Origin: Trichodelitschia bisporula
Lineage: Eukaryota
Assembly: GCA_010356995.1 (NCBI GenBank)
Contig: ML996687.1
Coordinates: 993,803 to 1,057,802 of the forward strand
Length of the DNA: 64,000 bases
Direction: 5' to 3'
Shown here: in pieces, positions 31,797 through 60,296 of the stretch
Numbering within the stretch: the stretch's first letter is position 1
Layout of the letters: every line of letters starts with the position of its first letter
Translations under genes and position numbers: made by a program
Notes under the pieces: model-generated
Databases searched by the model: none
What the model was told of the DNA's origin: nothing
Seen by the model: the letters and a program-made list of their open reading frames with translations, nothing else

Positions 31797-32060
31797 AGCC
31801 GGATGTGCAGACGATGATGTTGGAAGACTGCTGTGGGTAATAGAGGTGTTGTTTGTCCTGGGAATGCAGACCAGATAGCTGAGGTGGCAGAACTCGCGCG
31901 ACGGGTGTGGCTTGAAAGGCGGTAAATGAGAGGCGCCCCGTTCGCGGTGGCCAGCCCTTCAAGATTCTTTAGTCTAGAGTTCAGTTCGCCGCCGACTGTC
32001 GCTACAGTACTCCGTACAATTCCTCCTTTGCGACTCCGGCAACCCTCCTCACTCACAACC

Positions 32061-32849
32061 ATGGATGACACTGGCGAAGCTCAGCGCGAATGCGTCAAAC
32101 TCTGGCGTGTTTGGCGCACTGTACGTCAGATGTGCAAAGATCGGGTTCGATGAACTTCGTCCATATTGCGCCCTCGTTTTGCTCACAGTCGCAGGGTTAC
32201 GAAGTCCTCGATAGCGAGATAAACATCACCCTTGACGAGTTCAGGTCTAGGTTTGCTGATGTAACAGGCTTTCCTGAGTACGTACAGCTCCATCTGGTTT
32301 GTTCAACGCTAACCATCTACTAGACGCAAGCAACTCAACTTCTCGCTGCGGCCTACAGATGCCATGATCGCGAAATACACCGAGATTCCGACCCCTTCAC
32401 GGCCCAACCCCCCGGAACCTCATATTGGCAACATGTGGGTGGAGTTCAACGGCGAGAGCAACCTTGGTGTGAAGCCCATCCGTCTGTTCGCCCAGCACAT
32501 CGATCAGAACAACTTCTTCAGCGGGATTCTCATCACCACCGTCCCAGTTACAAGTGCGGCGCTCAAGATCACGACTACTTTGGCGCCTCGTACCATCGAG
32601 ATTTTTCAGGAGCAGGACTTGCTTGTGAATATCACGAAGCATGAGCTGGTCCCTAAGCATGTACTGCTAAGCCCTGAGGAGAAGGCCAAGTTGCTTGAAC
32701 GATACCGCCTGAAGGAGACCCAACTCCCGCGCATCCAGAGAACCGACCCGGTGGCGAGGTATCTTGGTTTGCGGCGCGGCCAGGTGGTCAAGATTATCCG
32801 CAAATCTGAGACCGCCGGGCGATATGCATCCTACCGGTGGTGCATCTAG
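32061..32849 (+). CDS. RPB5: RNA polymerase I/II/III common subunit Rpb5 (ABC27; 2 introns)
   Basis: LWRVWRTVRQMCKDRGY, LLVNITKHELVPKH, QLPRIQRTDPVARYLG, RKSETAGRYASYRWC. Confidence 0.97.
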
Positions 32850-33108
32850 GTGAAAAGTTCGGAGTTTCGGTGTTCGGGAGGCTAGGGTGCATAGTGAAGG
32901 GAGTTAGTTTGGCTCTGCGTCAAATAGTTTGCCTTACCTCCTCACAGGCGTTGTGTACGAATAGAATCAGCGAAGAGGGGATTGCCCCAAATGATTGATC
33001 ATTTCTGTTGTAAAGCCATTCCTTCTACATACCATCTCGAATATGCGTCCTCTATTACCCGTGCGCTTCAGAGATGTGTGCAGCAAAGATAACGCAAGCA
33101 TTAGGTCG

Positions 33109-34107
33109 TTAGGTTTGCTCCGACGTTCCGCTCACATCGATTTCCTCTCCCGCCCTCTTCCCGTCTTGCACAGTCTGTAATACCCCTCGGGTTATCATAT
33201 CCCGACCGGCCAGTCCATCGACTCTGGCTCCATATGCCCCTTCGACCATCCCTACTACCCTCCCCACCCACTCTTTGGTCTTCTTAGTCTCTCTGGAGCC
33301 CGCATCTCCCGCCCTCCAGCAATCCATAACAGTCCCGCCGATTTTCTCCATGAAACTGCCGAATCCCCCCTCACCTCCTCCGGCAGCATAGCTCTTGAAC
33401 GGTCCCCAAACAGCCCAACGCGGGCCCATGCTGCTCTCTACAACACGATCGATGTCCTGCACATCTGCAACCCCTTGTTCGGCCAACACCATTGCTTCCC
33501 TCAAGAGTGCAAAGGCAAGCCGGTTTGCCACAAAACCGACGCACTCTTTTTTCAACACTACAGGTTCGCGGCCCCACGCGCGCCAAAGTTCCACAGTCTG
33601 TTTTATCACTTCGGCATGCGTCGCAGGCGAGGGAACGAGTTCCAGCAGCGGCATGATATGTGGCGGGTTGTAAGGGTGCACAACGAGCAAACGGCCTGCG
33701 TCTCGCATATTGACGCTCTGTGTTGAAGCAGGGATTCCGCTCGTGCTGGACCAGAAAATTGCGGTAGGCGGAGCATGGGCTTCGACGACAGGCCATAGCG
33801 CAGTTTTGAAAGAGGCGGACTCAGGGCCCTGTTCTTGGACTATATCGCATTGCTGAAGAGCAGCCGGAAGGGTGGCATCCGTGGTGGAAAGGTTGAGCTG
33901 AGAAATTATTGCCGTGGCATCACTATCCACGGGAAGGTATTGCGGCAAAGTGGTAGAAAGGTAGGCTTGCAAATCCGGCCTGGTATCGTGAATGGTAATA
34001 CGCGACGGAGGGGAATGTGTAAGATGAAAAGCAGCAAAAGAAAGTCCGATCGTGCCAGCCCCTATGAGGGTTATGCGTGGCTTCTCTAAAGCTGCCTTAA
34101 AGTCCAT
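33109..34107 (-). CDS. 3-hydroxyacyl-CoA dehydrogenase family protein (lambda-crystallin/carnitine dehydrogenase-like), intronless
   Basis: Rossmann LIGAGTIG, VQEQGPE, SSTSGIP, HPYNPPHIMPLLE, GFVANRL, MGPRWAVWGP. Confidence 0.88.
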   Translation of the reverse strand: MDFKAALEKPRITLIGAGTIGLSFAAFHLTHSPPSRITIHDTRPDLQAYLSTTLPQYLPVDSDATAIISQLNLSTTDATLPAALQQCDIVQEQGPESASFKTALWPVVEAHAPPTAIFWSSTSGIPASTQSVNMRDAGRLLVVHPYNPPHIMPLLELVPSPATHAEVIKQTVELWRAWGREPVVLKKECVGFVANRLAFALLREAMVLAEQGVADVQDIDRVVESSMGPRWAVWGPFKSYAAGGGEGGFGSFMEKIGGTVMDCWRAGDAGSRETKKTKEWVGRVVGMVEGAYGARVDGLAGRDMITRGVLQTVQDGKRAGEEIDVSGTSEQT

Positions 34108-34500
34108 GATGAGATGTGTTACGGGTTGATTACAGGAGTACCGGTGCTTGGGTGGATTGTCAAGTGAAGTATGCCAAAACTTTCGCAGTCCCATGTCCGG
34201 GGAGCATACGGATCTACCTACCCGTGCTGCAATGTGGGGTAGCGGGGTGACAGGCCAGGGGTACGTTAGGCGCTCGTCCGAAGCAGACATGACTTTTATC
34301 CAACTGTAGACTAGGCGGCAGGCATGCAAGCATTTCGGAACCTCAAAGCGTGCAGAAACGCACGAGATTGATATTTGAGTATTGCCGGCCTTACGATGCT
34401 GCTCATCTTATTTGCAGAAGGCAATCAAAGCATCGAAACAATGTAAAACATGCAGGTTGAGATGGATTCCCCAGGGTTCCTAATATCTTGATCCAGTCGG

Positions 34501-35217
34501 CTAGATTTTCAGCGGCAGGAAGTTGGCACACCCGATGCGCGTCTTATCTGAAGTGTGGACGACAACGCTCCGGTTAGCAATGTAAGCCTCGTCGCCAGGG
34601 GCCAAGGAGGAGTATAAGTCAATGAATCTGCAGTGGCTCAGTTAGGGTGACCAATGCCCAAAGGGGGCTGAAGGCAGACTTACGACTTCTCAACAGCTCC
34701 GCTAGTCGTGATGTTGCCATACTTCCCGCTTAGATCTCCAACCTGGCAGGAATCCTTGTCTGAGGCGTTACACGCTGGGACTTCACCCCGAGCCCACGGA
34801 TCCAGGTGAGCCTTCGCGTCGGCACAGGCGCCGCTCTGGGAGGGCCGTTATGAAACTTTCACAGGACATATGCTCATCATACTCACAGCTGGTACAGGTT
34901 GATCGTGGACATGATACACTAAGGTCAATTAAACCAATTTCGAAAAGAGGGTCGATCAGGTACTTACTGAAGGGGCCACCAGTTGCTGGGAGACCAGAGA
35001 TCTTGATGCTGAACAGCACGCCCTGACCACTAGGGGCAGTTGAAGCAAGGACCGAACCCTGGATTTTGGCAGTCGGCGGGAAGTTGGCCACAAAAGCGGC
35101 ACCCTTAGGGTTAGTCTTAGTCCGCGCAGCGGGAACGGCCTTTGGGGAGTCTCCCGGTCCATGGGGACTGGCTAAGGCCAGGGAAGCGATGAGGGAGACG
35201 ACGAAGGCGGTCTTCAT
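34501..35217 (-). CDS. Secreted Cu-only (SOD5-like) superoxide dismutase (3 introns)
   Basis: Signal peptide MKTAFVVSLIASLALA; spliced GGPFMYHVHDQPVP..C..AHLDP..C..CQVGDLSGKYG..RSVVVH..RIGCANF. Confidence 0.88.
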
Positions 35218-36124
35218 GATTGCTGATGACTTGCGCGGTGTAGGTTGGACTTCAAGATTGAACTGAGTTACTACGGTAGATCAGGGGAAGCCGAATTTCT
35301 TATACCAACAGAAAGCCGGATTTTGACTTTGCATGAACCCCGTCGGGTCCTTGATTAAGATGGGAGAATCGTCCGTAACCAAGGCCAACAGAGCTGGGCG
35401 ACGGGTGGGAAATAGAATGACGATATCAGGTGTGAGAACGGAGAGATTGGCGGTGGATCCAATGCTTGAAAATGCGCCGGCAATGAACAGTCAATGTGCC
35501 ATTGGTACGGACCGGATTGATATATTAGACGTGATCATTGCTCCAGGGACCGAGTGTCCGATTGATGAAGAAGCTCTATGCGAGAGTAAGTCTGAGCGGA
35601 TTGGCAGTCAAAGCAAGCACAACAATGAGCTTGGAAGAATGCCATTTTGTATGGGACAGCATAGGCCATGCGCTTAGCAAGGGAACATGATACGAGGTTT
35701 AAAGGGCATAGGTTCGTCCGCGAGCTATTGGAGGCTGAAGCCAGTTGACGTTGGGAGTAAGGGATTCTGGGCAAGGCTCCAAGGCTCTAAGGAATTAAGG
35801 CATAGAGGCCTATACCTAGGCAGCAATGGCATGAGGCGACGAGGCAGGGAGGGGCATCTTCGCCAAGCGCTTCTTTCCCCCGCTTCTCTGCTATGCACGT
35901 CACGGGCGCGCAGGGCGGCAGGAAGATATTGCACCCGAGTGCTTTTTGCCCCCCCACCCTCCTCAAGGCACCAATTCATTCACGTACCTTCACGCTTTCA
36001 CCTTCCACTTCTCCTTGAAGTCTCCATCTCCCACCTCCAAGTTTCCTTGAACTCGTTGGCATCAACACAACATAAGTAGAGGCGTCCATTCCGCTCCTCG
36101 GACATTTCCCTGGTTGCTGTCAAA

Positions 36125-38480
36125 ATGTCGGACCTCAACTCTTGGGAAGGTAGGTACCCCGCCATATCAAACTGCGTGCGGACCACCACTTACCCTGCCG
36201 TAGACGACAAAGATGCCCAGGACGATCATCTCGCCCAACAGGCGCAGCGGAACCTGAACATTGGAAATGCGCAGGCTCCTACTTTCCACCCAGGAGCATC
36301 AAGCTTCCAACCTAATGCCAGTACCTTTCAGCCGCAGTACCAACAATACGCTCAGTACGGCACGTACAACCAAGCTGGGTATGGTGGCCAGAACTACAGC
36401 TACGGACAGCAATCACAGCAGCCGTATCGGGCGCCCGGATTTCAGCAATATGGTTACGGTCAGCAATACAACCCCCCTCAAGGGTACGGCTACAGTCAAC
36501 CGCAAAACGCGCAGCAGTTTACACCAGGCCTGCAATCTCAGCCGCCCCAGCAGCAGCAGCAGCAACCTGTGCAAATCGCCAAACGTCCTGCCCAAGGTCA
36601 ACAACCAGCGGCTGCACCGCAGAAGTCTGGTACAGAAGCTACCACCTCGACTGGCGCCCCGAAGGCCAAAGTCTTGTCAATCGGTGGTGATGGTTCAGCC
36701 AAGATAGAGAAAGCTGCGACCACCAAGGTTCTCAGCATCGGAACGCCCGCGACCAAACAGGAACCCTCTGCTAAGGCCGAAGTCAAGCGGGATGCGCCCG
36801 CTGCCGGATCAAAAGCCGCCGCAAACAAGGCCATTGAGAAGACTGGGGAGTTGAAAGCTGCGCCAGGGGCAGCATCCGGGAAGTCCTCACCAGCGCCCTC
36901 GTCGGGACGTAACTCGCCAAGTCAGGCTACCGATCGGGCAGCTGCACGTGAAGCAGACGCAGTGCTCAAAGAGCAGGCCGTAGATGTTGACGAAGAAATC
37001 CTGAATGAGGTGTACGGAAAGGTGAGCATGTTGTACACCTCACAACATTGGATCTAAAAGTTGAGTAGGAACACGTGAACGTCATCTTCTTGGGCCACGT
37101 TGATGCCGGAAAGTCGACATTAGGCGGATCCATTCTTTATGCCACCGGCATGGTTGATGAGCGGACCATGGACAAATACAAACGGGAAGCTAAAGATGCC
37201 GGCCGTGAGACCTGGTATCTTTCATGGGCTCTTGATCTCACCAAGGAGGAGCGTTCGAAGGGCAAGACTGTCGAAGTTGGTAGGGGCTTCTTCGAGACAG
37301 AAAAGCGCCGCTACTCCATTCTTGACGCACCTGGCCACAAGACCTTCGTGCCTAGCATGATCGGCGGAGCTTCCCAAGCTGATGGTAAGACCCCATTACT
37401 GGTTGTCTAGCTTAGTGATTGACCTTTACAAGTTGGCGTTCTCGTCATCTCTGCGCGCAAAGGCGAGTATGAGACAGGATTTGAAAAAGGCGGCCAAACC
37501 CGGGAACATGCCGTCCTTGCGAAAACCCAAGGTGTCAACAAGCTTGTGGTGGTTATTAACAAGATGGATGATCCGACTGTCGAATGGAGCGAAGATCGGT
37601 ACAAAGAATGCTCAACGAAACTCACCACCTTCTTGAAGGGTGTTGGATACAATCCCAAGACAGACCTGATGTTCATGCCGATCAGCGGCCAGGCTTGTCT
37701 TGGAATCAAGGAACGCATTCCTAAGGACATCTGCAAGTGGTACGACGGGCCGTCTCTGCTCGAGTACCTTGACAGCATGCAGGCTCTCGAGCGTAAAGTC
37801 AATGCTCCGTTCATGATGCCTATCTCGGCCAAATACAAAGACATGGGTACCATGATCGAGGGAAAGATCGAGGCTGGAGTGATCAAGAAGGACGCCACAT
37901 ATCTCATGATGCCTAACCGAGAGAAAATTTCGATTTCAGCACTGTATGGTGAGACTGAGGACGAGATTTCTCAGGCAATTTGCGGTGAGCAGGTTCGAAT
38001 CCGGATCCGTGGTGTCGAGGAGGAAGATATTGCGCCCGGCTTCGTTCTGTGCTCCATGAAGCGCCCTGTTCACTGCGTCAACGCCTTTGAGGCACAGGTC
38101 AGTTGCTTCCCTAGCGGATGTCGAGACATGATTACTGATGTGTCTTACAGATCGTACTTTTGGAACTTCGTTCCATCTTGAGCGCCGGTTTCAACTGTGT
38201 TATGCATGTTCATGGCGCGACTGAAGAGGTGACCTTCGCCGCACTGCTTCACAAGCTCGAGAAGGGTACGGGGCGCAAGAGCAAGAAGCCACCTGGCTTT
38301 GCGACCAAGGGCATGAGCATCATCGCCCGCCTTGAAGTTATCAGCGGCGGTGGAGCCATCTGCGTCGAGCGTTTTGAGGACTATCCTCAGTTAGGACGCT
38401 TTACGCTGCGTGATCAAGGGCAGACCATCGCGATCGGGAAGATCACGAAGCTCATTACGGACAAGGGTCCTGATGCTTGA
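36125..38480 (+). CDS. SUP35: Translation termination factor eRF3 (4 introns)
   Basis: Q/Y/G-rich N-domain, charged M-domain, HVNVIFLGHVDAGKSTLGG, GKTVEVGR, DAPGH, NKMDD, LGRFTLRDQGQTIAIGK. Confidence 0.97.
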
Positions 38481-38865
38481 ATGATTATATGCGGCACGGC
38501 GTCAACTGGTTTTCATGGTTAAACTCGGCGAGACTGGCGGTCTGGAAAATGGCCACGCTGTGCATCTGCTTGAGACGTGTTCGGACCTGGAAGACTAGCA
38601 GCCGGAATGGCCCTCAGCGTATGTACGTGGTGTAGCTTATGGAGCGTGATTTGCTCTGCAGAATAGTTTTAGCGGGGAAGCCCTCAGGGTTCTTCAAAGG
38701 TTAGAAAAGCAAATAGAGCAGCACATGATTGTCTTTAAAATTGATTTCATTCTCAACCGATGCTTGATAAAAGCTCATGCATACAAATCCACTACCACCT
38801 GCCAACAGTATGTGACCCTCTTTCTCACCCGGGACCCCCTAACGCCATGCAAATTTCAGTCCAAT

Positions 38866-40400
38866 CTACATGCCCAGCTGGGCCGTCTCCAGAATACGCA
38901 GTACAGCGGGAACGGAGCTCGGCGGGAGACTCCCGTACTCAGTAACAACCAGCTTGACGTACTCAGCGGGGGTAACATCGTAAAGAATGTTGAGCACCTG
39001 CAGCCCCGGCGTTTCAGTCCATGTCTTGAGAAGCTGCTCACGAGCCGGTCCGCCGCCTATATAGCCGAGAAGTTCATCCGCAGGAGCCACTTCATTGCCG
39101 ACAATAGAGTCGAGGGCAACGCGATCCGTGAACTTCACACTTTGACAGCATACTATGACTGGGACGTCATGTTCATGCGCATGCATGGCCACAATGGCCG
39201 TGCCTACTCGTGAGAATAGGCGGCCGTTTGCCATCATCGCATGTGCCCCTAGGAAGATGCGGTTGGCTTCGGCCACGGCATGGGAAGCTGCAGATATCGG
39301 CATATATTGAGTAGGGATGCCAGCAGCGGCGAGGTCCTTCGCCATACGGCGACCCTCGAACAATGGTTTTGAATCCAAAACAATGACGTTGAAGGATGTG
39401 CCCGCGTTGTGTGCGGCGAGAAGCGTCTTAAGCACCAAAGAAGATTTGGCGAAGGTGAGTATCGTCTCGCCGGGAAGAATCCTCGCAGATGCAGCTTGTG
39501 CAATGACCGTGTCGGCGGCGCTAATGCGCTCGTGCAAGAAGGTGTCTATGGCGGCTACCAACGTGCGCTTAGCAATGGGCTCCGGAACACTGGGATCGAT
39601 CTTGATGATCTGGTCTTTTAGGAACCGAATGCTATTCCCCATAGAGATGCTTATAGGCCGACAGGCTTTAAGGAACTCGATTTGAGGAGAGAGGTGATGC
39701 GCGGTGAGGTGTCGCGCAAGAGAAGTTCCCTGCGGCGTTGTGTATGATTTTATCACCTGGGTCGTTAGCGAGAATTTCAAATGACACAGGAAGAGATACT
39801 TACACTCTTGAACGCTTGCAGCATTCCAACGCACCTCGCCGTGCTGCCACAGACTTCGTAGCTTGACATTTGAAGCCCTAGCGCCAGCACGGAAGGGTGG
39901 ACTTCCTTTGGCGCATTTTCGATTGTGTGTCGGCGAGCATTTCCGTAAAGATGACCGAACAGACCGACGCGCTTTTTTGGTCCGGAGGGGGGCGCAGCTG
40001 GCGCGGGGGCACTGACTGAAGCTCGGCGGGAAGCTTGTGTGGACTTTGCGGATATTTTCAAGCTCGAGGCTTGCCCGGCGCTTTTGCTACCGCCATGCTC
40101 CTGTTGCGGCTGCAGCTGCCTCTTTTGTTTCCCCGGCTGCTCCCCCGGTTGCTGAATAGGAGGTGGAGTGGCCTCCGACTTCTTCGCGGCCCGCTTCGCA
40201 GCCTTTTCAGCCTGCTTGAGCTTCTTCAATTCCGCACCGGAGAGCTTCTTTGGCGCAGCGGCCTGGGTATCGGGGCCGGAGGGACTATTCGCAGCGGCAG
40301 CTTGCATCGGACCGTCACGAGCGGGAATTGCGCTGTCGGGGGCTGTTGGCGCCACGATAGAAGGAAGAGGAGAACTCGGAGACATATTGGTGTTTTCCAT
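38866..40400 (-). CDS. GCD2: Translation initiation factor eIF2B delta (1 intron)
   Basis: LSGAELKK..AEKAAKRA, VHPSVLALG, GSTARC, RPISISMGNSIR, DSKPLFEG, LGAHAMMANG, SRVGTA, YDVTP. Confidence 0.94.
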
Positions 40401-40794
40401 GTCGTCGATGTGGTGTTGCAGAGAAGTCGAAGAGGAGGGGTAATGGCGGGGGTGGAGATTTTGGAGAGTCACCGATGATTGCCAAGCGTTAGGGTCCGTG
40501 TTCTGTGAAGGAGTACCGTAAATGATCCTAGTCGGTGGCGTGGGTGGCTGGTGAATCGGCGAAACCCCGGAGGTTCTAAAAACGGTGGGGCTTTCTGCAC
40601 CGTGCGCATCGCTGCACGCTAAGAAAATGCCAAGAGATATGATGGAATTCATGCGGGTTTCGGTGCGCAAACTCGTGACTGAACGGGCAACGACTTGATC
40701 TTTAGCCACATACTTTACAACAACACTTACTTAAACCCCGCCCTAGCTCATCAGCTCCCGGTTTTCTTTTGTACATCTATCGAGCTCGTTTAAC

Positions 40795-42501
40795 ATGCCA
40801 GAACCGTCGCGTGGTCGGGCGAAGAAGGTTGTTGCGCCTCGTGGCAAAGGTCGGCGCACTCAAGCAGAGCGCGACCAAATCTCCCAGCTGCAGGCCGAAC
40901 GTACGCGGGAGAAGGAGACCCAATACGCTGAGGAGCAGGATGCTGCGAGGCGGGCTGCAGAGCGCGCCGAGCGCTTTCGCAGCAGAGGTAGAGGAGCAGG
41001 CCGTGGACGTGGCCGGGGTGGTTTCATGGGCGAAGCAACATCTGCCGTTCAAGGACCACTTTCCGCCGGATCCGTGATAGGAGGTTTGTGTTTGCCGTTC
41101 GTCAATATATAAATCCGTTGCTAACCGTCAAATGGCCATATTTCCGTCGGGAAGTCATTCCCGAGACCTTGGATGTCAAATCAGAAGCCAGCATCCTTTA
41201 ACGTCAAGCGGGAAGCCATCACTGCAATCAAGTCCGAGGGAGGCTCTTCTGGAAATGATGGAATGGCCTTTTCAAGGCTCAATATCGAAGATGGCGGCTA
41301 CATATCCTCGGACCCTGATGAGCCGGCTGAAGGGCCCCGTGAAGATGTCGACTTCATCAATCTCGCCGATGAATCGGATTCGGACCAGGTCAAGTCCGCT
41401 GCGTTGGGAGGGGCACGTGGTCATCGAAGCGCGTCAGCCTTTGCCCCAGTACGTATTATCCGAGTGGAGCACAAAGACAGAGCTCCTCCCATCAACCCGG
41501 AGATCAGCGCGGGAGCTTCCAAGAAGGAGCCGGACGATGCAGCAGAAGATACCGGAGCTCCTTCATCAAGCAAAGGGAAACAGCGTGCCAAAGATGTAGT
41601 GGTCATCAAAACCGAGCGCAAGTGGCATGGTGTCTATTCCTCGGATGACGACGAAGCAGTGAAGGTCAAAGACGAGCCAATGGAGGATGTCACGTCTTCC
41701 GCGCGACCTCCAGTAGTTAAGGAGCCATTATCAGCTCCTACGTCGCCCAACAAGTCGAAGATCAAATTGCCCCGCGCCCACCACAAAAACAAGCCCTTTT
41801 TACTCACCGAGGAAGACCGCGCCGAGTACGCCCGAAAGTTGCGCCAAACAGAGCTTCTTCTGGCAGAACTGGGACCTGTGTCTGCAGCGGAACCTACAAC
41901 GACCGGAGAAGATTCTGCTCCGCCGCCACCTGACCCACGCGCTGACCGAGTCTACTGGTTCCAGTTCCCGCCCAAGATGCCCGATCTCCTACCAAACGAG
42001 CCGATTGCGATCAAAGACGATGCTCCTGTTGCCGCTACACATGCTGGTACCGCTCCCGAAGAAACCGTCCCTGGAAAACCCGAACCCTCGGCTGCAGATG
42101 GGAACGCTCCTGTTACTGTAGGCGCAGCCGACGCAAAGGCCACTACACCGAACAAGGAACGTCCAGAGCATCTGCCTAAACTCGCATCGGGAAACGTTGG
42201 GAAGATGCGTGTCCATAAGAGCGGAAAGGTCACCATGGATTGGGGCGGTACGAGCTTCCAAGTCAAGATGGGAGTTGAATGGTCGCATCTGCAAGACGTG
42301 GTTCTGGTCAAGTCGCATGAAAAGGACAAGGAGCGCAGTGCGAATACGGCGGCTGGCCCAGACGATGGGAGCTCTGCTGGTGCTGGTTCTAGAGCGGCTG
42401 GTGCTGCTAGCCGGAAGGGCGGCATCAGCGGGGACACATATGCCTTTGGACAGGTCAAGGGCATGTTCGTGGTCACGCCCGATTGGGATGAGTTGTTGTA
42501 G
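40795..42501 (+). CDS. RPC53: RNA polymerase III subunit C53/Rpc4 (intron near 41084, acceptor uncertain)
   Basis: C-terminal Rpc4 domain YWFQFPPKMPDL..GNVGKMRVHKSGKVTMDWGG..GQVKGMFVVTPDW; RG-rich N-terminal exon. Confidence 0.87.
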
Positions 42502-43192
42502 CTGGGCGAGAGGACACATGTATGTACGGCTTTATGGGCAATGGAACCGGGATAAAAGTCTCCACATACTCGTATGTCACGGCGACCTGATAGTGCTGCG
42601 GGGTAGTAGATACGACTGCTTGGCCTCATCCATAGGGCTCATGGGAAAGGCGTATAGAGTCAAAATGTACAAAGTAGGTAATCATGATAAAACTGCGAAG
42701 AAACGAAGCTTTTTTTTCATGTTGCCGGTATCAACGGACGTTGAGAAGAGTGGAAAAAAAGAGCCTAGCCTAGCCGGGGCAGTGGTGCAACAGACCAACA
42801 GGATGTACGGTAAAGCTGTACGTATGCGTAGGGCCGCTCGGGCGGGGACCCCCGGGGCGTCAGTCATCCGTCCGATGTCGCCATTTACTTTTTTAAAAAC
42901 CCCGCCAGTACTGGGTCCAAGCGCACCTTTCGGCAACCTTAAAACCTCTAGCATTTCAACGCTTTTGATTCTCATCCTCCTCATCCCTCTTCAAAACCCC
43001 TCCAACCCCTCTACCTGGCCAATTCCCAAATAGCCCTCCTTCTTCTCCCTCCGCCCGCCTGTCAAAAAGGTACGGACTACAGTCCTACATATCTCTAGTG
43101 TCTTTCGCCGACACTGTGAATCTCGTATTCTTGTATCTCTAACATCTCCTCGTCTTCTCTCCAGATACTTCTCACCGCCTCTACACTTCACG

Positions 43193-44533
43193 ATGGTCTC
43201 TGCCAACGGCACCAGCCCCAAGGGCACCTTCCTTTTCACATCCGAGTCTGTTGGTGAGGGTCATCCCGAGTAAGTTGAAAACACCGAGATTGTTTCCCCT
43301 CAGTCAGTAATGGTACATTTACTGACCTCTGCCGTAGTAAAATTGCGTATGTGTTAAGTCCCAGTCTCGTCCCGGCCGCCCACACTTACCCCTCCCCAGC
43401 GATCAAGTCTCGGATGCCGTTCTCGATGCTTGCCTGGCGAATGACCCCCTTTCCAAGGTGGCCTGCGAGACGGCGACCAAGACTGGCATGATCATGGTCT
43501 TCGGTGAAATCACCACCAAGTCCCCGCTTGATTACCAGAAGATTATTCGCGATGCTATCAAGGACATTGGCTACGATGACTCGTCCAAGGGCTTTGACTA
43601 CAAGACCTGTAACGTCTTGGTGGCCATCGAGCAGCAGTCACCCGATATTGCTCAGGGTCTGCACTACGAGAAGGCCCTTGAGGATCTTGGTGCCGGTGAC
43701 CAGGGTATCATGTTTGGCTATGCGACTGATGAGACCCCGGAGATGCTTCCCTTGACCCTTCTGCTCGCTCACAAGCTGAATTCTGCTATGAGTGATGCCC
43801 GTCGGTCCGGCAGGCTGCCTTGGTTGCGCCCGGACACAAAGACTCAGGTCACGGTCGAGTATGAGAACAACAACGGCGCCGTGGTACCCAGGCGTGTCGA
43901 CACCGTGGTTGTCAGCGCTCAGCACGGCCCCGAAATTACCACCGAGCAGCTGCGCAAGGAGATCAAGGAGAAGATCATCAATGAGGTCATCCCCGCCAAG
44001 TACCTCGATGATAAGACCGTCTACCATGTTTGTTTACCACACGTTTCTATTTTCCCAAAACTAATCGCATACAGATTCAACCCTCTGGGCTCTTCATCAT
44101 CGGCGGCCCTCAAGGTGACGCCGGTCTGACTGGCCGCAAGATCATTGTTGACACATACGGCGGCTGGGGCGCGCACGGTGGTGGCGCTTTCTCCGGGAAG
44201 GACTACTCAAAGGTTGATCGTTCTGCTGCCTACCTTGGTCGCTGGATTGCCAAGTCTCTTGTTGCTGCCGGCCTCGCTCGCCGCGCTCTCGTCCAGCTGT
44301 CATACGCTATCGGTGTCGCGGAACCCCTCTCACTGTTTGTTGAGACGTACGGTACGTCCGAGAAGACCTCGGATGAGCTTGTGGAAATCATTCGCAAGAA
44401 CTTCGACATGCGTCCAGGTGTCATCGTCCAGGAGCTCGACCTCGCCAAGCCCATCTACTTCCAGACTGCGAAGAACGGCCACTTCACCAACCAGAACTTT
44501 TCGTGGGAGAAGCCTAAGAAGCTTGTTCTGTAA
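43193..44533 (+). CDS. SAM1: S-adenosylmethionine synthetase (9-nt micro-exon 43338-43346; probable 5'UTR intron 43070-43164)
   Basis: [64 protein letters not shown]. Confidence 0.98.
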
Positions 44534-48400: not shown

Positions 48401-50047
48401 TCTGAGGAATGTGGATATTCATCTCGTCACCGTCGAAATCTGCGTTGTACGGGTTACATACACTTTCGTTCATGCGAAATGTTCGCCCCTGCAATACTCG
48501 CACCTTATGGGCCAAGATACTGAGCTTGTGAAGGGAGGGCTGGCGATTAAAAAGGGCAATGTCTCCATGGTAGACGTGGCGTTCTACTACGTCCCCAATT
48601 TCAAGATATTTCGCCTCCTGGCGCAGTTTCTCGGGTCCCAGTCTTGCCATGACGCGCAAAGACTTAGTGATACCGGACTTCTTGATGATCTGGTTTGCGC
48701 CGGGCCAGTTCTCGGGACCATTCCGCACTCTCTCGCGCATGAGCTTGATATTGTGATCTGTGACGCGTTCCGGGTAGGTCAATATCTTGGCAACCTGAGT
48801 GGGGATTCCAACTTCTTCGACTGAAAGATTGGGATCCGGTCCAATGACCGTGCGGGCTGAAAAGTTGACACGTTTGCCGGAAAGATTTCCTCTGAATCGG
48901 CCTTGCTTGCCCTTCAGTCTAGAGCAGAAGCTGCGAATCGCCTTGCCGTACTCTGTCTTATTCAGCCCGGGCGCATGGCTGTTGACGTACATGGCAATAT
49001 GGTCCTGTAGCTTTTCGTACAAGTCCATTGCCACACCGATATGCTCATCACTCTGAAGCGCGGCACGGAGACGGGCGTTGAGGTCAACGATCTCACAGAG
49101 TTTGGTACTCAGGTCGTCCTCAGTAGTGCCTTGATCGCCAGGAACTGAGGGCCGAATAGTTGTGGGCGGGACAGGAAGTAATGTCCAGAGGTAGGATTCC
49201 GGACGTCCTTTATGTGAGTCCAGACCAAGAAGCTCGCAGTCCTCGGCTGATATGCGCTCGAATAAACGATACACTTTGTTCGCGGGCAAATCGTCGACAG
49301 CCCTCTTGATGTGCTTTTCCATGTCGGGAGATTCTTTGACATACGTACGGAAAGACTTGTCAAACCTGACCTTGTCGGGGGGGGGGACCTTGCTCTTGGC
49401 CGACGACTTGTTGAATGAGTCAAATGGCATATGGACGATCTTACAGGCATGACCGGCAACCTTTCGAACAGGTCCATTCGAAGCCCCGCAGTGTGGGCAA
49501 TTGTGGACCTTTCTACATTCAGACTGCAAGCTCTTCAGGTGCCGAGCTTTCTGAAAGCTATCCTGGCCAGGTCGCCGCATAGCCTGAAGCCGAGAGCGCC
49601 GGTCGTCGTCCTCCAGGAGTACCTGAGAGCATGTTTTGCAGATTTGGCTTAGGATGTCGACGGTAAAGCTGAGGAAGCCGATGTGGAAGCAGGGAAACTC
49701 GAGGCGAATGTGGCCCCAGTGACCGTTGCAGGCCTTTTGGTCCATTCCACAAGTCTGGCAGGCGTCTACCTTGCTGGCAGCGCCTAATCTTGGGTCCAGA
49801 GGTCCGTTGTGAGTTTGCCGGCGAACAGGCATCAAGTCATAGAGATTTTTATCCGCAACCTCAACTTGGGACTGTTCAACAACTTGACTTTCAGACCTGG
49901 TAATATCCATTAGCTGGGAAAAGGAGATGCTGACAGCCATAACACCCACATGACTCCAAACTCCAAGGCTCCGAACCGCATAGGTGTTTCATCCACCACC
50001 TGCTGCTTGGGCTCATGGCCCGGATACGGCTTCAATCGCCGATACAT
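45426..50047 (-). CDS. RPO31: RNA polymerase III largest subunit C160/Rpc1 (one 5' intron)
   Basis: CNGHWGHI, RLKGKQGRFRGNLSGKRV, FNRQPSLHKLS, YNADFDGDEMN, TQMTLKTFHFAGVA, GEVLGITRFGM (Pol III-type); no CTD heptads. Confidence 0.96.
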
Positions 50048-50129
50048 TTCTCCTCACTTGCGAAAAAGCTGGCCAGTGCCACCCGAAAGCACCCTTTGAC
50101 TTGACGCAGAGAGAAGCGCGAAAGGCAAC

Positions 50130-50136
50130 TGAGTCA
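50130..50136. promoter_or_regulatory. Gcn4/CpcA site TGAGTCA upstream of RPO31
   Basis: Exact consensus about 83 bp upstream of the ATG. Confidence 0.45.
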
Positions 50137-50561
50137 ACGAAGATGGCAGGTAGAGATCAGTGAAAGACGTGACGGCAGAGTTTTTTTCAAGTTAGATGTG
50201 CCTGATGAGAGTGACAGGCTATGAGAATTGCTGTTCAAAACATTGTAGCCACTGACAGTCATTCCTGTCCTTCAACTCTGGCGTGGCGGCGACCCGATGG
50301 AAAGTTTTGGTTAAGGTCTTGGCATCAACGCGGGTTTGCGCACTTTATCGATAAGCCCTAGCTAGAACTATTGTGGCAAGCGCTAATGCACCTCCTCGCA
50401 CCATTACAAACCTCCAAACATTCACAAAGATGGAAGTTCAGCCTCATCCTTCAATTTCACTATCTACGTTTCGCTTCTACGCCATAATACTATAACTCTC
50501 CTAAGCTCCATCCCATTTGGTACACCGCAACTGCGCTTGGAAAGTATCTAACGATGATCCG

Positions 50562-53500
50562 TTAACCCCAGGTTCCGCCTCCCCCCCGTCCCTGGCGACG
50601 TTGTGCGCTCAGCCGCCAGTCATCTTCGCCTGCAAAGCGATTATGCAGGGGTTGGATGCGCTCAGCCTTCTTACGCTTGCTCAAGCGATCGTTCGGGGCG
50701 ACACGGAAGAAGGTTGGCGCCGCCTCTACGAGCCACCTGGGCTCAATGGCAGTGACATTGTGCATATACTCCTTGGTCGTTTCCACGAGTGAGTGGTAGA
50801 TAACGTGCTCGGCCGGCTTGCCGAAGAGAGCTGATGAAGGATGCATGTACACTGGGGTACCTTCAACAAGCGTCGTGAAGTTGCCCTCTGGGCTCTTTCG
50901 TGCTGCGTTGCGGAAGAAACCCGAGCATAGTGCCTGGCGCACCTTGGTCGTGTCCCGTCCACAAGATGCAACGCGCAGCCGATGCCGTTCAAAAATTCCT
51001 AGCAGTTGCTGCCGCACATCCTGCACCCGCTTCATGGCCCGCGGCTGGATGAAGTTCTCGTAGCACCACGGGGTGCTGAATTTGCTCATCTTCCAAGCAT
51101 TGTACACATTCAGCAATGTCAAATGATCGCCATGCTGATCGTGGAATTTTGCCTTTTTCTGATCGGCTTGCTGCTGCTTTTCCTTTGGCCGATGAAAGAC
51201 GGTCTGAGTTGCTGAGATCATGGCCACTATGGTGAGCATCTCGTCCGCACAGTCAAACTGAACAGATATGATAAGCGCTTTGGCCAATGAAGGATCCATG
51301 GGGAAATCGGCCATTTGCCGACCTAAACGGGTAAGGAGACCCTCTTCATCCAGTGCTGACAGTGCATAGAGCTCTTCCAAAGCGGTGAGGGTCGTATTGG
51401 TTGGAGGAGGGTCCATAAAGTCGAAATGCAGCAAATCGTTGATTCCCATGGCCTTGAGCATCAAGATTGTGTGCGACAGATTCTGACGCTGAATCTCCGG
51501 AATGGTGGTCGGAAGCATTTCGGATTGGAAGGCCGTTTCAGTGTACAGACGGAAACACTTGCCAGGTCCAGTTCTCCCAGCCCTGCCCGCTCTCTGCTTC
51601 GCCTGTGCCTGCGATATTGGCGTCACCTGTAAGCGGTCCATACCGAGTTTTGAATCGTATGCGGTCTGCTTAACAAAGCCAGGATCTACGACGTAATAGA
51701 TACCATCGATAGTAATGGAAGTCTCGGCAATGTTGGTTGCAATAACGACCTTTCGACTTCCCGGAGGCGCTGGGTCGAAGATGCGGCTGGCTACTTCGCT
51801 TGGAAGGGCGCCATAGATAGGCAAAATCATGAGCTCTGGGACGGCTGGCCCAAGCGCCTTCATCCGTTCATGTAGAATTTCGCAGCTCGTGTCGATCTCC
51901 TCCTTACCCGTCAAGAACAGCAAAATGTCACCAGGAGGTTCGGTAAGATGGATTTGCATGACGGTGGTAAGGGCTGAATCGAGGTAGTCCGACTCCGGCT
52001 CCCGGGAGTACATGATCTCGACCGGGTACGTTCGGCCCGGAATGGAAAAAATTGGACATTGGTTGAAGTACTCAGAGAACTTATCAGCATCAAGCGTAGC
52101 CGACGTAACGATAAGCTTCATATCGGGTCGCCTTTTCAGCGTCTTCTTGAGCAAGCCGAACAAAACGTCCGTAGCAATCGTTCTCTCGTGAGCTTCGTCC
52201 AACATGATGACCGAATACTTGTTCAGCATTGGATCGAGGAGAATCTCGCGCTGAAGGATGCCGTCCGTCATGTACTTGATCTTGGTGTCCGGAGTGGTGC
52301 AGTCCTCGAAGCGGATGGTATAGCCGACCTCATGGCCTAGTTTGCAGCCAACTTCGTCTGCCACACGCTGAGCAACTGACATGGCCGCAACACGACGAGG
52401 CTGCGTGCAGCCAATCATGCCCTCATTGGCATACCCATCTTCAGCGAGGTATTGCGTAAGCTGTGTCGTCTTTCCTGAGCCAGTATCACCAACAACGATA
52501 AGAAGCTGATTTGCCCTGACGGCTTCGAGGAGTTGCTTGCGGAACTTGAATACGGGAAGGCTTTCACGCTGGTCTTTAATGCTCATGTTTGTTCGCTTGC
52601 CAGTTGATGGCTCCTTGCCTTGCATGATGCGCTTCCACTCTGGGAGAGGCTCGTTGCTTTGCGCGGCTTGGGCATTCCGCAAACCCGACGCAAACTGACG
52701 TTGCTCGGGTGCTACGAGGGGATCTTGCCATTGGGCATTAAGATCGACCTGAGCGGCGCGCTGAGCTGCCTTGTCCTGAGCTTCTTGTTGCCGTAGGTCT
52801 CTGCGCTCTTTGGCAAGCGATTCGCCTGCGATCGCAGCGCGGTTGAGAGATCCATCCGGGGCCTTGACCACGCGGATCGGAGACAGTTCGAGCGACTGTT
52901 TGGTCTGACCTGCAAGGAAAGGCGGCTCCTCCTCGCGAACCTCGATGTCGACATCCTCCTCTTCTTCGATTTCACCATGTCCATTGAGGGCGGCGGTAAA
53001 GTCATCGTCGATGTCGGGGTGATCCTCTCGGGAGATTGCTCCAGATGCGATCAGCTGTTTGATCTCCCACCTCTCGGGGGACGTAAGCCGCTTTCTCTGG
53101 CGTCCAGAATTCTTGAAGCCGTCTTCGATGACCGGAACATCGGAAATGGGGTCCCCAAACCGTCCGTTGGATGCCCCACCCAGGCCTTCTCCATTTGCGC
53201 CAGTGCCAATTCTGAGCTGTGGAGCAAGATCTCTACCGGTGACCTGGTCTACTTCCTTCATGGAGAGGCTGATGCGGGTACCCTCGATCTTGATAACCTT
53301 GACTTTTACTTCCTGGTTTCGAGACACCAAATCCGAAGGATGATTCACTCTCGCCCCCTCTTGCATGGCCGTGACATGAACCAGTCCGTCAATTTTGTCT
53401 CGTACGCCTTGGAGATTGACAAAAACGCCAAAATCTTTCACCCCTGTGACCCTGCCACTATAGACCTTGAAAAGGACGGGGGCATCGTCGATCTCCGGCG

Positions 53501-54224
53501 TAGGTGGTCGACGAAACTCGTCCTCGCTATCGCTCCGCCTTCGCCGTGTCTTCCGGCTCTTTCTTCCCCCGTCCTCGTCTCTTTCTCTTCTCACTGTCTT
53601 CGTTCTCCCAAAGTCGTCCTCGAAAATGTAATCATCGTTCCTCGAACCCTTCCCGTTCCGGCGCGGACTGCGTTCCCGATTGCGTGATTCGCTTCTGTAT
53701 CGCTTATGCGGACGTCCTCGAGACTCATCATACGGGCTACGACTCCGCTTTCGAGCTGTGGTGTCCACCTTCGTCATGGGAGGAGGTGCCGACTTCCCGG
53801 CCAAACTCTCCAGCATGGCAAAGGTGTCATCCAGTACGTCCATCTTGGGATCATCAAGGGGCACTGGGTCTGCATCCGGAATAGCCAGTCCACGAAAAAC
53901 CTTAGCCTTGCGTGCAGTCTCGTCATCTCTTTCCTCCCTGACGCGCGCCATATCCTCGTGTACAGCTTTCTCGCTCTTCCCTTTGTCCTTGTAAGCCGGA
54001 TGCATGGTCCATACCAAGCGGTCGATACTCTGGACCAAGCTGCGCGGAAACTCGGCTCCCATGGCATCCAGGGCGGCTTGGAACGCGTCGAGACTGTCGC
54101 ATTTCGCGTGCTGGGCAATGATGAATTCCGCGAGGGTTTTGTCCGTAATGCCGAGATGGTTCTGGAGTTCCGAGGTTACTTTGGTCACCAGAGAGAGGAG
54201 CTCTAGAGATGCAAGATCGTCCAT
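50562..54224 (-). CDS. PRP22: DEAH-box helicase Prp22/DHX8, intronless
   Basis: MDDLASLELLSLV start, S1 domain, SPERWEIKQL, GDTGSGKTTQ, DEAH, SAT, QRAGRAGR. Confidence 0.97.
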   Translation of the reverse strand: MDDLASLELLSLVTKVTSELQNHLGITDKTLAEFIIAQHAKCDSLDAFQAALDAMGAEFPRSLVQSIDRLVWTMHPAYKDKGKSEKAVHEDMARVREERDDETARKAKVFRGLAIPDADPVPLDDPKMDVLDDTFAMLESLAGKSAPPPMTKVDTTARKRSRSPYDESRGRPHKRYRSESRNRERSPRRNGKGSRNDDYIFEDDFGRTKTVRRERDEDGGRKSRKTRRRRSDSEDEFRRPPTPEIDDAPVLFKVYSGRVTGVKDFGVFVNLQGVRDKIDGLVHVTAMQEGARVNHPSDLVSRNQEVKVKVIKIEGTRISLSMKEVDQVTGRDLAPQLRIGTGANGEGLGGASNGRFGDPISDVPVIEDGFKNSGRQRKRLTSPERWEIKQLIASGAISREDHPDIDDDFTAALNGHGEIEEEEDVDIEVREEEPPFLAGQTKQSLELSPIRVVKAPDGSLNRAAIAGESLAKERRDLRQQEAQDKAAQRAAQVDLNAQWQDPLVAPEQRQFASGLRNAQAAQSNEPLPEWKRIMQGKEPSTGKRTNMSIKDQRESLPVFKFRKQLLEAVRANQLLIVVGDTGSGKTTQLTQYLAEDGYANEGMIGCTQPRRVAAMSVAQRVADEVGCKLGHEVGYTIRFEDCTTPDTKIKYMTDGILQREILLDPMLNKYSVIMLDEAHERTIATDVLFGLLKKTLKRRPDMKLIVTSATLDADKFSEYFNQCPIFSIPGRTYPVEIMYSREPESDYLDSALTTVMQIHLTEPPGDILLFLTGKEEIDTSCEILHERMKALGPAVPELMILPIYGALPSEVASRIFDPAPPGSRKVVIATNIAETSITIDGIYYVVDPGFVKQTAYDSKLGMDRLQVTPISQAQAKQRAGRAGRTGPGKCFRLYTETAFQSEMLPTTIPEIQRQNLSHTILMLKAMGINDLLHFDFMDPPPTNTTLTALEELYALSALDEEGLLTRLGRQMADFPMDPSLAKALIISVQFDCADEMLTIVAMISATQTVFHRPKEKQQQADQKKAKFHDQHGDHLTLLNVYNAWKMSKFSTPWCYENFIQPRAMKRVQDVRQQLLGIFERHRLRVASCGRDTTKVRQALCSGFFRNAARKSPEGNFTTLVEGTPVYMHPSSALFGKPAEHVIYHSLVETTKEYMHNVTAIEPRWLVEAAPTFFRVAPNDRLSKRKKAERIQPLHNRFAGEDDWRLSAQRRQGRGGGGTWG

Positions 54225-54754
54225 GGTGGAGTATGCGCCCGTGGGGCTCGCAAATCGGATTGCAAGCGCGAAGGTCGATGGCAAAAGTCCCCTGTTGCCC
54301 GAAGCTCGCGAAGCACGGCGAAAGGTCCTCGGTACTCGGTGAAACTTTGCTCCAGTTGACCTCGTCAAGCAGGCGTCTCGACAAAAGAGCTTTCTCGGGT
54401 CAAATTGAAGCTTCGGTGCTGATGTGCACAAATGGAGATACAGTATTCTTTGGCTTATAGGGGAAACAAAGTGGTGTACACAAAGGTGAAATGCATTTGA
54501 AATCGCCTGTTTAAGATTGAGAGTGTTCCACTGTTCTGTGCTGTACTCGTACAGTAACCGGGCAGCAGATGCTCTAATCCGTACTGATGACTGAACAGAT
54601 ACCTTTCCAACTTTACTACGCCAATCTAGCGGTGAACTGGGCATCAGTTGGGTAACAACTTTCCATCAATTGAAGAAATTTTGAGAGGCGCAAAAAGTGG
54701 AACAAAAGGCGGTTTGATGAAGGAGCAGAACTGCAAAATAGCAGTTGCGGCCGA

Positions 54755-54846
54755 GATTCGAACACCAGAGCCGCTGAATCCCCTGCCTCGCCAAGCCCCC
54801 AAAGGCGGCCAAGCGCGGGGCAAAGTTGGGTATGAGTGTTCGAATC
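54755..54846. promoter_or_regulatory. Inverted pair of B-box-like motifs (GTGTTCGAATC) in the PRP22/BRF1 divergent promoter
   Basis: GATTCGAACAC at 54755-54765 and GTGTTCGAATC at 54836-54846; both fit GTTCRANNC. Confidence 0.5.
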
Positions 54847-55117
54847 GTCCCCAACTCGACCAAAAATTCAACCTCACGCAGCACCACGTCACCTCTCCTC
54901 ACCCACTTCCCTCATCACATTCACCTCTCCCAATCAACCTTCATTCAACATCAGCCTCCCCGTTTCCCATAATTCACTTGCATTGAAGCCTTTTGGAGTC
55001 CTACATTCCAGGCTCGCCTTCGACATTCTTTCACTTGAAGAAAGCCTCCAAGAAGCTCAGACTAAACTTAACCGTCTCCGAATACCTCCACAAAACTTTG
55101 CACCACCATATCCGATA

Positions 55118-57580
55118 ATGTCCGGGCCGAACCCAATATCACGGCCTCGGCCGCTTCGTGAGCGAATTGGTGGTCTCAGGAGCTCTCCCAGCCTTAGAGG
55201 TTCACCCGCTCCTGCTCCTCCAGTGAGTCTTATCACTGCTGTCGCCGCACGCCGCAAGGCAGCTCGTACATGCCCGAACTGTTCGACTCCAGACATCGGC
55301 GAACTTGAAGGCCAGGTAGTGTGTTTGAACTGTGGTGCTATCATCAGTGACTCTGTCATCGTCAACGAGATCGCCTTCGATGAAGCACCGTCTGGAGCTG
55401 CCCATGTCCAAGGAACAACTGTTCATGATGGCCAGCGCGGTGCCAGGTCGGTAGCTGTCGGCTTTCGGAGAGGGGGACGGTCGAGTGAGGAAACGGCAGA
55501 GAACGCTCTTCGCATCGGTAAGTGTTAGCCCGATGTCATCCCTGATTTACGCGCTCACGAGTACCAGGCAAGGAGGAAATCACTCGTCTGGCTAATGCTC
55601 TCCACATCAACGGAATGGTTGAGAAGGCTTACATGCTCTACCAAATTGCCCGCATCCATCAGTTCCAGCGGCCGATTAAAGAGAATGCCGCCATCTGTCT
55701 CTATGTTTCCTGCAGACAAACCAAGGGTAATACGACTATGCTCATTGACTTTGCCGAGCAAATTCGGGTCAGTTATCCCTATGAATCCGTTTAAATTTTG
55801 ACGCTAACATTGCTAGCAAAACGTATATGACTTGGGTGCCACATACAAGAGTTTCATCAAGGCCGTATCTCTCGAAGATGAGCTCGATCCTATCCCTATC
55901 ATCGAAATTGAGCCCCTACTCCTGAAGTACGCGAAACGATTGGAGTTCGGCGATGCAACTCGGCAAGTGGCTGCCGACGCCGCTTCCATTCTCGCCCGTA
56001 TGGACCGCGACTGGATGGTTACCGGACGTCAGCCCTTCGCCCTTTGCGGCGCATGCTTGATTCTGGCGGCCCGCATGAACAACTTCCGCCGTTCAATCCG
56101 CGAAGTCGTTTTCATTGTCCGTGCCGGCGATGTCACCATCTTGAAGCGTCTCAAAGAATTCCAACGTACCACTGCAGGGCGCTTGACCGTCCAACAGTTT
56201 CGCGACGTTGGCTTGCGTCTCAAAGAGCAAGCTGATCCGCCTTGCTTTACGGAGAAGCGTTACAAGAATATGCGGAAGCGCAAGCGGGGTGTTGCCATGT
56301 TTGACGTGGGCACGTCTACTCGCGATGCCACCGTCGACCTCACTGGATCTTCGACTTCCGGATCTCCGGCTCCTAGGCGCGATGCGGACGGGTTCGTAAT
56401 ACCAGATGTGCCAATTGATCCATCTCTTGTCTCCCCGGCAAATAATGCTGAGGCAGAAAACAGAGCACCTACTGCGCAAATGGCAACTCGCGTGTCTACC
56501 AAAGGTTCTAGAACTTCCAAGGGTACCACTCCAGACGGGAGCCCGGAAGTCGCAACTCCAGAGGAACAAATGGACGAGGTGCTTGAGGAAATCGAAGGAC
56601 CATCGACTAAGAAGCGGCGTACGCGCAAGAAGGAGAAGCCGGATCCCCTAGTTATCCAAGCGGAAGACCTTCTAGATGATAATGAACTCGGCGAGCTCGA
56701 AGCGCAAATTAGCCAGATCGTTGACCGACACATTACTGAAGACGCCTACATCCTTTCGGAAGCGCGAGCCAAGGCTCTTGCCGACGCGGAAAAGGCTAAA
56801 GTGGCGGTCGACTCCCGAAGAAGGAAGGTTCGCCACACTGAGGAAATCGACCCAGAAGAGTTCGACGACGATCCTGAGGTGAACAATTGCTTACTCAATG
56901 AGCGCGAAGCCGAAGTCAAGGAGCGCATCTGGGTGACTTCGAACTGGGAATGGCTGCGCGAGCAGCAAGCCAAGGCACTTGCTGCGCAACTGGACGAGGC
57001 GAAGGGCAAGAAGAAGAAGACGCCGGGCACAAGCCGCAGACGTCTTAAGGATGACAATGACCAGGAACCCGCGGCGACGCCTGCTGAGGCTAGTCGTCGT
57101 ATGTTGGAAAAGCGCAGCTACCGCGCGGCTTTCAGCAAACATCTAAACTATGACAAGCTTATGAAGATCTATGGGCGGGACGAGGGCGACGACGATGACA
57201 ACGACGACAACGACGACAATGCTAGTCGGGCCACGAGCCCTGCACAGACGGTGGATGGGAGCGTTGAGCCCGAATCTGCTCCGGAAAGATTCCAGATCAC
57301 TCGGACAAAAAAGCCGCAGCAGCAGCTTCCAACTCCCGCGACGACCCAAGAAGCATCTCGGGTAGTGGACCGCGACGAGGTGGTAGAGGAGGAAGATGCT
57401 GACATAGGAGCACCAAACAACACCGGAGGAGAAGTCGAGATTCTGGAAGAGCTCAGCGACCTTGACGACGAGGCTGAGCCGGGAGTAGACGATACCATGT
57501 TGGATGATGATGATATGGAAGATGCATTTGAATCCGAGGATGAGGTGTATGATGATGAGGATGGTGAGGAGTTCGGCTAG
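55118..57580 (+). CDS. BRF1: TFIIIB subunit Brf1 (2 introns)
   Basis: Zn ribbon CPNC..CLNCG, cyclin folds, RMDRDWMVTGRQP..GACLILAARMNNFRR, DDDPEVNNCLL..KERIW, FSKHLNY. Confidence 0.95.
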
Positions 57581-59653: not shown

Positions 59654-59768
59654 GATGAAAATAAGGTCGGACGGCTGGTATGAGAGAACTGAGGTATGTT
59701 GTAGGGAGCGGAATGGGAGGACGCGAGGAGGTACGATGTACTTGAGGTGTCTGGAGGGGCAGTTCGGT

Positions 59769-60284: not shown

Positions 60285-60296
60285 AGCTTAATTACG

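Follow-up and report, generated by a model that had tools for sequence, protein, structure and literature searches.

Four genes of the RNA polymerase III (Pol III) system, encoding Rpb5, RPC4, RPC1 and Brf1, lie close together in a 64-kb stretch of the genome of Trichodelitschia bisporula (contig ML996687.1, positions 993,803 to 1,057,802; hereafter the window), which raises the question of whether they form a functional unit or are neighbours of another kind. The initial annotation of this DNA had favoured the former, describing an operon-like module for transfer RNA (tRNA) supply. We concluded instead, with a probability of roughly 70%, that the four are ordinary, single-copy, separately transcribed RNA polymerase II (Pol II) genes that were juxtaposed in this lineage within a larger housekeeping block. 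This account draws on the identities of the genes, their separate spliced RNAs, their unconserved linkage and the lack of a shared motif, and it would extend to control in trans and to persistence of the block once it had formed.

The identities could be settled gene by gene. The interval 32061-57580 begins at the Rpb5 start codon, ends at the Brf1 stop codon and contains all four genes (Table 1), and the placing of RPB5, RPC53, RPO31 and BRF1 within 26 kb was borne out by the Pfam, PDB and tblastn identities and by the coordinates. The RPC1 product matched yeast RPC1 (5fj8_A) at 1423.6 bits over residues 32-1492, compared with 760 bits for Rpb1 and 493 bits for RPA190, and it carries Pfam Rpb1 domains 1-5 only, without the C-terminal heptad-repeat tail, as is proper to the largest subunit of Pol III. 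The RNA_pol_Rpc4 domain of RPC4 scored 112.5 bits (Pfam cut-off 26.5), which assigns the protein to RPC4/C53, and its homologues carry the JGI name "RNA polymerase III subunit RPC4". By domain content the remaining two proteins are Brf1 and Rpb5. In Brf1, the BRF1 domain scored 88.9 bits and the TFIIB repeat 55.8 bits, both over the cut-off, and the zinc ribbon (Zn_Ribbon_TF) reached 24.6 bits in the open reading frame (ORF) of exon 1, under the cut-off of 29. The N domain of Rpb5 is split over three exons, each piece falling alone under the Pfam cut-off, and the introns between them, read from the sequence, have GTACGT...YAG ends. RPC1, Brf1 and RPC4 of the window are 100% identical to NCBI proteins of T. 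bisporula, and all three are on one contig of 2,035,263 bases.

From left to right, the middle part of the window holds the genes for leucine carboxyl methyltransferase (LCMT), Rpb5, a dehydrogenase, eRF3, eIF2B delta, RPC4, S-adenosylmethionine (SAM) synthetase, RPC1, Prp22 and Brf1, and from Rpb5 to Brf1 their strands run + - + - + + - - +. The interleaving of eRF3, eIF2B delta and SAM synthetase was confirmed by PDB and Pfam matches; the 3-hydroxyacyl-CoA dehydrogenase and Prp22 in the same interval had gone unmentioned in the initial annotation. Contigs from a second study (X3 and X4, one sample, presumed to be RNA), in both of which spliced joints were seen, gave information on how these genes are transcribed. 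Separate RNA contigs represent eIF2B delta, RPC4, SAM synthetase, RPC1 and Prp22 (the last in X3), and introns have been removed from them at joints with GT..AG or CT..AC ends. The RNA contigs with Brf1 continue into SerRS, and in X4 they extend on the other side into Prp22 as well. The contigs are unstranded; separate spliced messages are visible in them, exact transcript ends are not. The genes are separate spliced messages and not one polycistronic unit: an operon has its genes on the same strand and in one primary transcript, and here the genes lie on both strands and in separate spliced RNA contigs, so that the operon-like description did not hold.

The same contigs bear on whether the arrangement is real. 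An artefact of assembly or sampling, either a mis-join or a contaminant with a reduced genome, could be suspected since every DNA run in which the stretch occurs may have been a source of the assembly. Run X1 gave a Logan contig of 48,164 bases, made by an independent assembler, which covers positions 38200-58100 with 0 differences, although X1 is possibly the source of the assembly itself and its contig is then not independent support for the gene order. The RNA contigs of the other study match the window at 100%, however, and one of them, of 8,303 bases, joins Prp22, Brf1 and SerRS. Furthermore, RPC1, Brf1 and RPC4 all have their best relatives among the expected Dothideomycetes, and a single Trichodelitschia entry for RPC1 was present among the 120 matches listed; a duplicate or foreign copy of RPC1 was ruled out on these grounds. 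An artefact is accordingly very improbable. The window itself has a G+C content of 53% across its 64 kb and zero N. Its source is a filamentous ascomycete with the standard genetic code: an alternative code had been suspected from in-frame stops in AsnRS and eRF3, and it was rejected because these stops fall inside ordinary short introns of the form GTAYGN...CTAAC...YAG.

An alternative is a co-regulated module, in which Pol III transcription, the supply of methyl donors, and the charging and delivery of tRNA would be kept together because a common local control is selected for. The window offers such a module a suggestive list of members (four Pol III-system genes, six aminoacyl-tRNA synthetases, eIF2 alpha and gamma, eIF2B delta, eRF3 and SAM synthetase), and three pairs of its genes are head-to-head with start codons 264-473 bp apart (LCMT and Rpb5, 264 bp; eIF2B delta and RPC4, 394 bp; Prp22 and Brf1, 473 bp). 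However, no upstream word common to the members emerged. The PAC core CGATGAG was not enriched in the window (9 observed, 11.1 expected), nor was the RRPE core AAAATTTT (0 observed, 0.85 expected); among the 19 upstream regions searched de novo (9,530 bp), no 6-, 7- or 8-mer was found in more regions than in Markov shuffles, and no word of at least 7 bases recurs in every one of the four Pol III upstream regions. These are crude word counts, which degenerate motifs would escape, and by this measure the window has no shared cis element of the kind expected of a co-regulated neighbourhood. A scan found no tRNA genes within the 64 kb, and no Rfam family matched the window. None of the Pol III genes is paired head-to-head with another Pol III gene, and the surrounding block includes genes for the spliceosome, the proteasome, secretion, TFIIA, an aquaporin and the dehydrogenase, so that framing it by tRNA is selective.

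The linkage of the genes in relatives argues further against selection for a common local control. RPC1, Brf1 and RPC4 were each compared with 120 listed matches, contig sizes being compared by eye and equal size serving as a proxy for the same contig. The only contig seen in any two of the three lists was that of Trichodelitschia, with 2,035,263 bases. In 15 other named species with at least two comparable genes, none (0/15) had any two of the three on a shared contig: Tothia fuscella, Verruconis gallopava, Lineolata rhizophorae, Viridothelium virens, Acrodontium crateriforme, Bathelium mastoideum, Coniosporium apollinis, Dothistroma septosporum, Pyrenophora seminiperda, Candelina mexicana, Dothideomycetes sp. 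NU459, Meristemomyces frigidus, Venturia effusa, V. nashicola and Aureobasidium uvarum. Venturia inaequalis, Aureobasidium melanogenum, A. pullulans, Elasticomyces and Hortaea were left out as ambiguous, being represented by different strains or by large multi-member clusters. The three genes are on contigs of 1,312,579, 1,310,703 and 164,957 bases in Verruconis gallopava and of 1,680,911, 1,251,688 and 2,270,476 bases in Acrodontium crateriforme, and sequential locus tags in the compared species place them hundreds to thousands apart.

A second comparison used metagenome contigs, which were scanned with an RPC1 alignment to give 80 loci and then searched by tblastn with 33 ORF proteins of the window. 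None of the other 32 proteins was found in any of the 17 RPC1 loci with at least 41% identity. The closest locus, L001, has 63% RPC1 identity and covers 10 kb to either side of the gene on a contig of 223 kb; it and two others (L002 and L003) have an ordinary mix of neighbours around RPC1, including Cdc20, M18 peptidase, HAD, FHA, CHAT, actin, DDHD, SRAP and a kinase. The Pol III genes of the window are thus not part of a conserved synteny block in the relatives compared. The initial annotation had named two results that would tell against its module, and this, the lack of conserved linkage, is one of the two. What stands of the proposal is that Pol III and tRNA-using functions are far richer in the window than random order would give; the shared promoter word, a tRNA gene within the window and linkage in the relatives compared were all missing, and a co-regulated tRNA-supply module is in our judgement unlikely.

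The richness of the window calls for an explanation in its own right. Random gene order was simulated with 8,000-12,000 genes (the run contigs sum to about 29-31 Mb), category sizes taken from the yeast system and categories chosen post hoc. Under these assumptions, the share of random genomes with 3 of 18 Pol III-specific genes inside five consecutive genes was about 1.6e-4 to 4e-4 (about 3e-4 at 10,000 genes); 4 of 26 genes fell inside twelve consecutive genes in about 3e-5 to 1.4e-4 of them, and 6 of about 40 synthetase genes inside one 27-gene window with a frequency of about 7e-10 to 7e-9 per window (about 2e-9). Coincidence, the extreme tail of neutral shuffling spotted afterwards among many windows and categories, would fit the definition of the categories after the genes had been seen, the unconserved arrangement in the relatives compared and the lack of a regulatory signal in the word searches. 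In contrast, the values per window for the synthetases and per genome for the Pol III trio are too small for a scan of about 250,000 windows to absorb, and several independent complexes each have at least two subunits in the same 64 kb. We therefore consider pure coincidence improbable.

Several points weigh against juxtaposition of ordinary genes as a sufficient account. Random order makes the arrangement very unlikely, and a force or a history beyond neutral shuffling is likely. The four Pol III upstream regions contained 12 7-mers present in at least three of the four, compared with 5.9 +/- 2.7 in shuffles, which is a marginal excess. Fragmented assemblies may split one chromosome over several contigs, so that genes on contigs of unequal size need not be unlinked. 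The nearest comparable relatives are also distant, with at most 63% RPC1 identity among the matches listed, and a younger linkage conserved inside Phaeotrichales may exist. The distance does not reflect a peculiarity of the gene: among the matches listed, the next best RPC1 had 63% identity and those of Tothia, Microthyrium, Verruconis and Venturia had 58-62%, and pairwise identities inside that group are similar; therefore, the RPC1 of the window is not unusually fast-evolving.

The larger block changes what has to be explained. The Pol III sub-cluster belongs to a block that extends over at least 64 kb and is composed almost entirely of core housekeeping genes. Approximately 26 genes were identified in the window by Pfam and PDB searches, and the block is estimated at no fewer than about 27 genes. 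A gene of the same housekeeping kind is truncated at each end of the window, and the block is therefore longer than 64 kb. Six aminoacyl-tRNA synthetase genes are present, all of class II (ThrRS, of the cytoplasmic type, PheRS beta, LysRS, AsnRS, SerRS and PheRS alpha) and none of class I, with the two PheRS subunit genes about 57 kb apart. The same 64 kb contains the translation factors eIF2 alpha, eIF2 gamma and eIF2B delta, three spliceosome genes (Prp6, Prp22 and Clf1-like), two proteasome genes (Rpn12 and a 20S subunit) and the secretion genes Sec9 and beta'-COP. Five complexes are represented by at least two subunits: PheRS (alpha and beta), eIF2 (alpha and gamma, with eIF2B delta), Pol III (C160, C53 and ABC27, with Brf1), the spliceosome (Prp6, Prp22 and the Clf1-like factor) and the proteasome (Rpn12 and the 20S subunit). 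About 22 of the approximately 26 identified genes have orthologues that we take to be essential in yeast, on the strength of yeast deletion data. The common trait of the block members is a core housekeeping role, and the real anomaly is a lineage-specific island of genes most of which are presumably essential.

It is possible, though we regard it as doubtful, that this island of at least 64 kb, with about four-fifths of its genes indispensable and five complexes represented by at least two subunits, was gathered from several ancestral chromosomes and is kept by selection; low recombination, protection from deletion or balanced expression of partners would be the candidate forces. Under the preferred account of juxtaposed ordinary genes, the block would most likely have been built by rearrangements of the kind that genomes of this fungal class often undergo and would then have been kept because breakpoints among dense, indispensable genes with short spacers are presumably seldom tolerated. 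Each gene would be expressed with its own introns and from its own upstream region, with no common transcription unit, and coordination with growth would most likely be achieved in trans, as for the Pol III genes of other fungi. Because three of the four Pol III-system genes are head-to-head with a partner from outside the Pol III system, any sharing of local control would most likely be pairwise, through the bidirectional promoters of such pairs.

As a Pol III module the locus is of little importance, its genes being standard, separately expressed and unlinked in relatives. If a genome-wide test bore out a packing of indispensable genes and complex partners far above chance, however, it would be an extreme natural case for the study of selection on gene order in eukaryotes that lack operons, and the proposed causes (avoidance of recombination, balance of dosage or noise, and resistance to rearrangement) would be open to testing.

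Table 1. Features of the window; positions are counted from its first nucleotide.
Feature	Coordinates	Strand	Evidence
Rpb5 (ABC27), subunit common to RNA polymerases I, II and III	exons 32061-32120, 32189-32277, 32324-32849	+	Pfam RNA_pol_Rpb5_C, 122.4 bits
RPC4/C53, Pol III-specific	exons 40795-41082, 41134-42501	+	Pfam RNA_pol_Rpc4; spliced RNA contigs; tblastn of annotated protein P0241
RPC1/C160 (Rpo31), largest Pol III subunit	coding sequence 50047-49948, 49894-45426; intron 49895-49947	-	Pfam; PDB search; tblastn of P0001 at 100%; RNA joint
Brf1 (TFIIIB subunit)	exons 55118-55516, 55567-55766, 55816-57580	+	Pfam; tblastn of P0121 at 100%; RNA joints
LCMT (Ppm1-like), approximate model	30616..31798; start codon 31796	-	Pfam LCM, 69.7 bits
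3-hydroxyacyl-CoA dehydrogenase family, unrelated to Pol III	33109..34407	-	Pfam 3HCDH_N, 106.7 bits; 3HCDH, 43.2 bits
eRF3 (Sup35-like), N-terminal Q/N/Y/G-rich region followed by GTPase; last C-terminal exon(s) further downstream	36125..38181	+	PDB phmmer, 324 bits to eRF3; Pfam GTP_EFTU, D2
eIF2B delta	38866..40402; intron 39755-39801; start codon 40400	-	PDB, 259 bits; spliced RNA contigs
SAM synthetase	exons 43192-43269, 43338-43346, 43400-44027, 44075-44533	+	Pfam N, M and C domains; RNA joints
Prp22/DHX8 spliceosomal DEAH helicase with S1 domain	50562..54644	-	PDB, 1434.9 bits to DHX8, 1080 bits to yeast Prp22; Pfam; RNA contig without joints
Left block, in order: ThrRS, PheRS beta, eIF2 gamma, aquaporin, LysRS, TFIIA large subunit, Prp6, AsnRS, Rpn12, eIF2 alpha, 20S proteasome subunit, Sec9, beta'-COP	1..30615	not specified	Pfam and PDB searches
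Right block: SerRS, PheRS alpha, HAT-repeat splicing factor (Clf1/Syf-like, cut by window end)	57821..64000	-	Pfam

Individual genes of the window have features of their own. Brf1 and SerRS are tail-to-tail, with stop codons about 240 bp apart (57580-57821), and the RNA contigs cross their boundary; the 3' ends therefore probably overlap. The second exon of SAM synthetase is a micro-exon of 9 bases between introns of 68 and 53 bases, which encodes the KIC of the conserved GHPDKICDQ motif and is retained in spliced RNA contigs from two runs. In eRF3, the N-terminal part (36125-37057) has many Q, N, Y and G residues as well as imperfect repeats, and is presumably comparable to the prion-forming domain of yeast Sup35. 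No repeat family was found in the window, the sole match being a CAG-type low-complexity pair between this part of eRF3 and the TFIIA gene (12172-12214). Between eIF2B delta and RPC4 there is an element of 43 bases (40396-40438) that was also seen, with 2 differences, on other contigs of the DNA runs; as it occurs elsewhere in these contigs and assemblies break there, it is a short dispersed repeat in the genome. Gaps between the annotated genes contain three open frames, each 165-233 codons long (3675-4178, 10317-11015 and 34786-35280), that matched no Pfam family.

In the literature searched, we found no description of a cluster of Pol III genes or of synthetase genes in fungi, nor of the arrangement of genes in T. 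bisporula. The paper on its genome (PMC7082219) names the species once in its text and does not use the terms "synteny", "mesosynteny" or "gene order", and the nine supplementary rows naming the species are without gene counts.

Superficially, the order Rpb5...eRF3...RPC1 of the window echoes an archaeal arrangement. In many archaeal metagenome loci recovered by our RPC1 scan (L015-L080), the homologues of Rpb5, of the largest subunit and of an EF1-alpha-family GTPase are found within about 10 kb: rpoH, the homologue of Rpb5, is about 3.5 kb upstream of the gene for the largest RNA polymerase subunit, and a gene of the EF1-alpha family is about 6-10 kb downstream. The order rpoH-rpoB-rpoA followed by EF1-alpha, on the same strand, is a known archaeal operon order. 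In contrast, the genes of the window occupy both strands, are separated by unrelated genes and show no linkage in the other fungi compared, and on the last ground a relic of the archaeal order was ruled out. Another parallel is offered by yeast, in which Arnone and McAlear reportedly described adjacent, co-regulated pairs of ribosome-biogenesis genes with PAC and RRPE promoter motifs. Growth-related genes (Pol III subunits and synthetases) likewise adjoin in the window, often head-to-head, but neither enrichment of the PAC or RRPE core nor another shared word accompanies them.

Linkage of genes for subunits of the same complex is said to have been related to dosage balance by Teichmann and Veitia in 2004, and the window resembles such systems in that several complexes have at least two subunit genes within it. 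Neighbouring genes are also reported to have synchronised expression noise (PMC6785257). The published linkage effects are reportedly weak statistical tendencies of gene pairs and not runs of dozens of genes, unlike the window. Essential genes cluster in regions of low recombination in Saccharomyces cerevisiae (Pal and Hurst, as cited in PMC8537764), and the same source describes ancestral collinear blocks of fission yeast that are dense in essential genes, contain about eight genes on average and are conserved across species, their Gene Ontology enrichment tracking essential-gene density and not function or co-expression (PMC8537764). An island kept by selection, if real, would be of a scale well beyond the gene pairs and the blocks of about eight genes in these works. 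The block of the window, with at least about 27 genes, is larger than the fission-yeast blocks as characterised there and, in the part compared with relatives, unlike them in being unconserved. It is nevertheless like both those blocks and the essential-gene clusters of S. cerevisiae, as there described, in consisting of independently transcribed, functionally mixed genes whose common trait is, presumably in the window too, indispensability and not one pathway.

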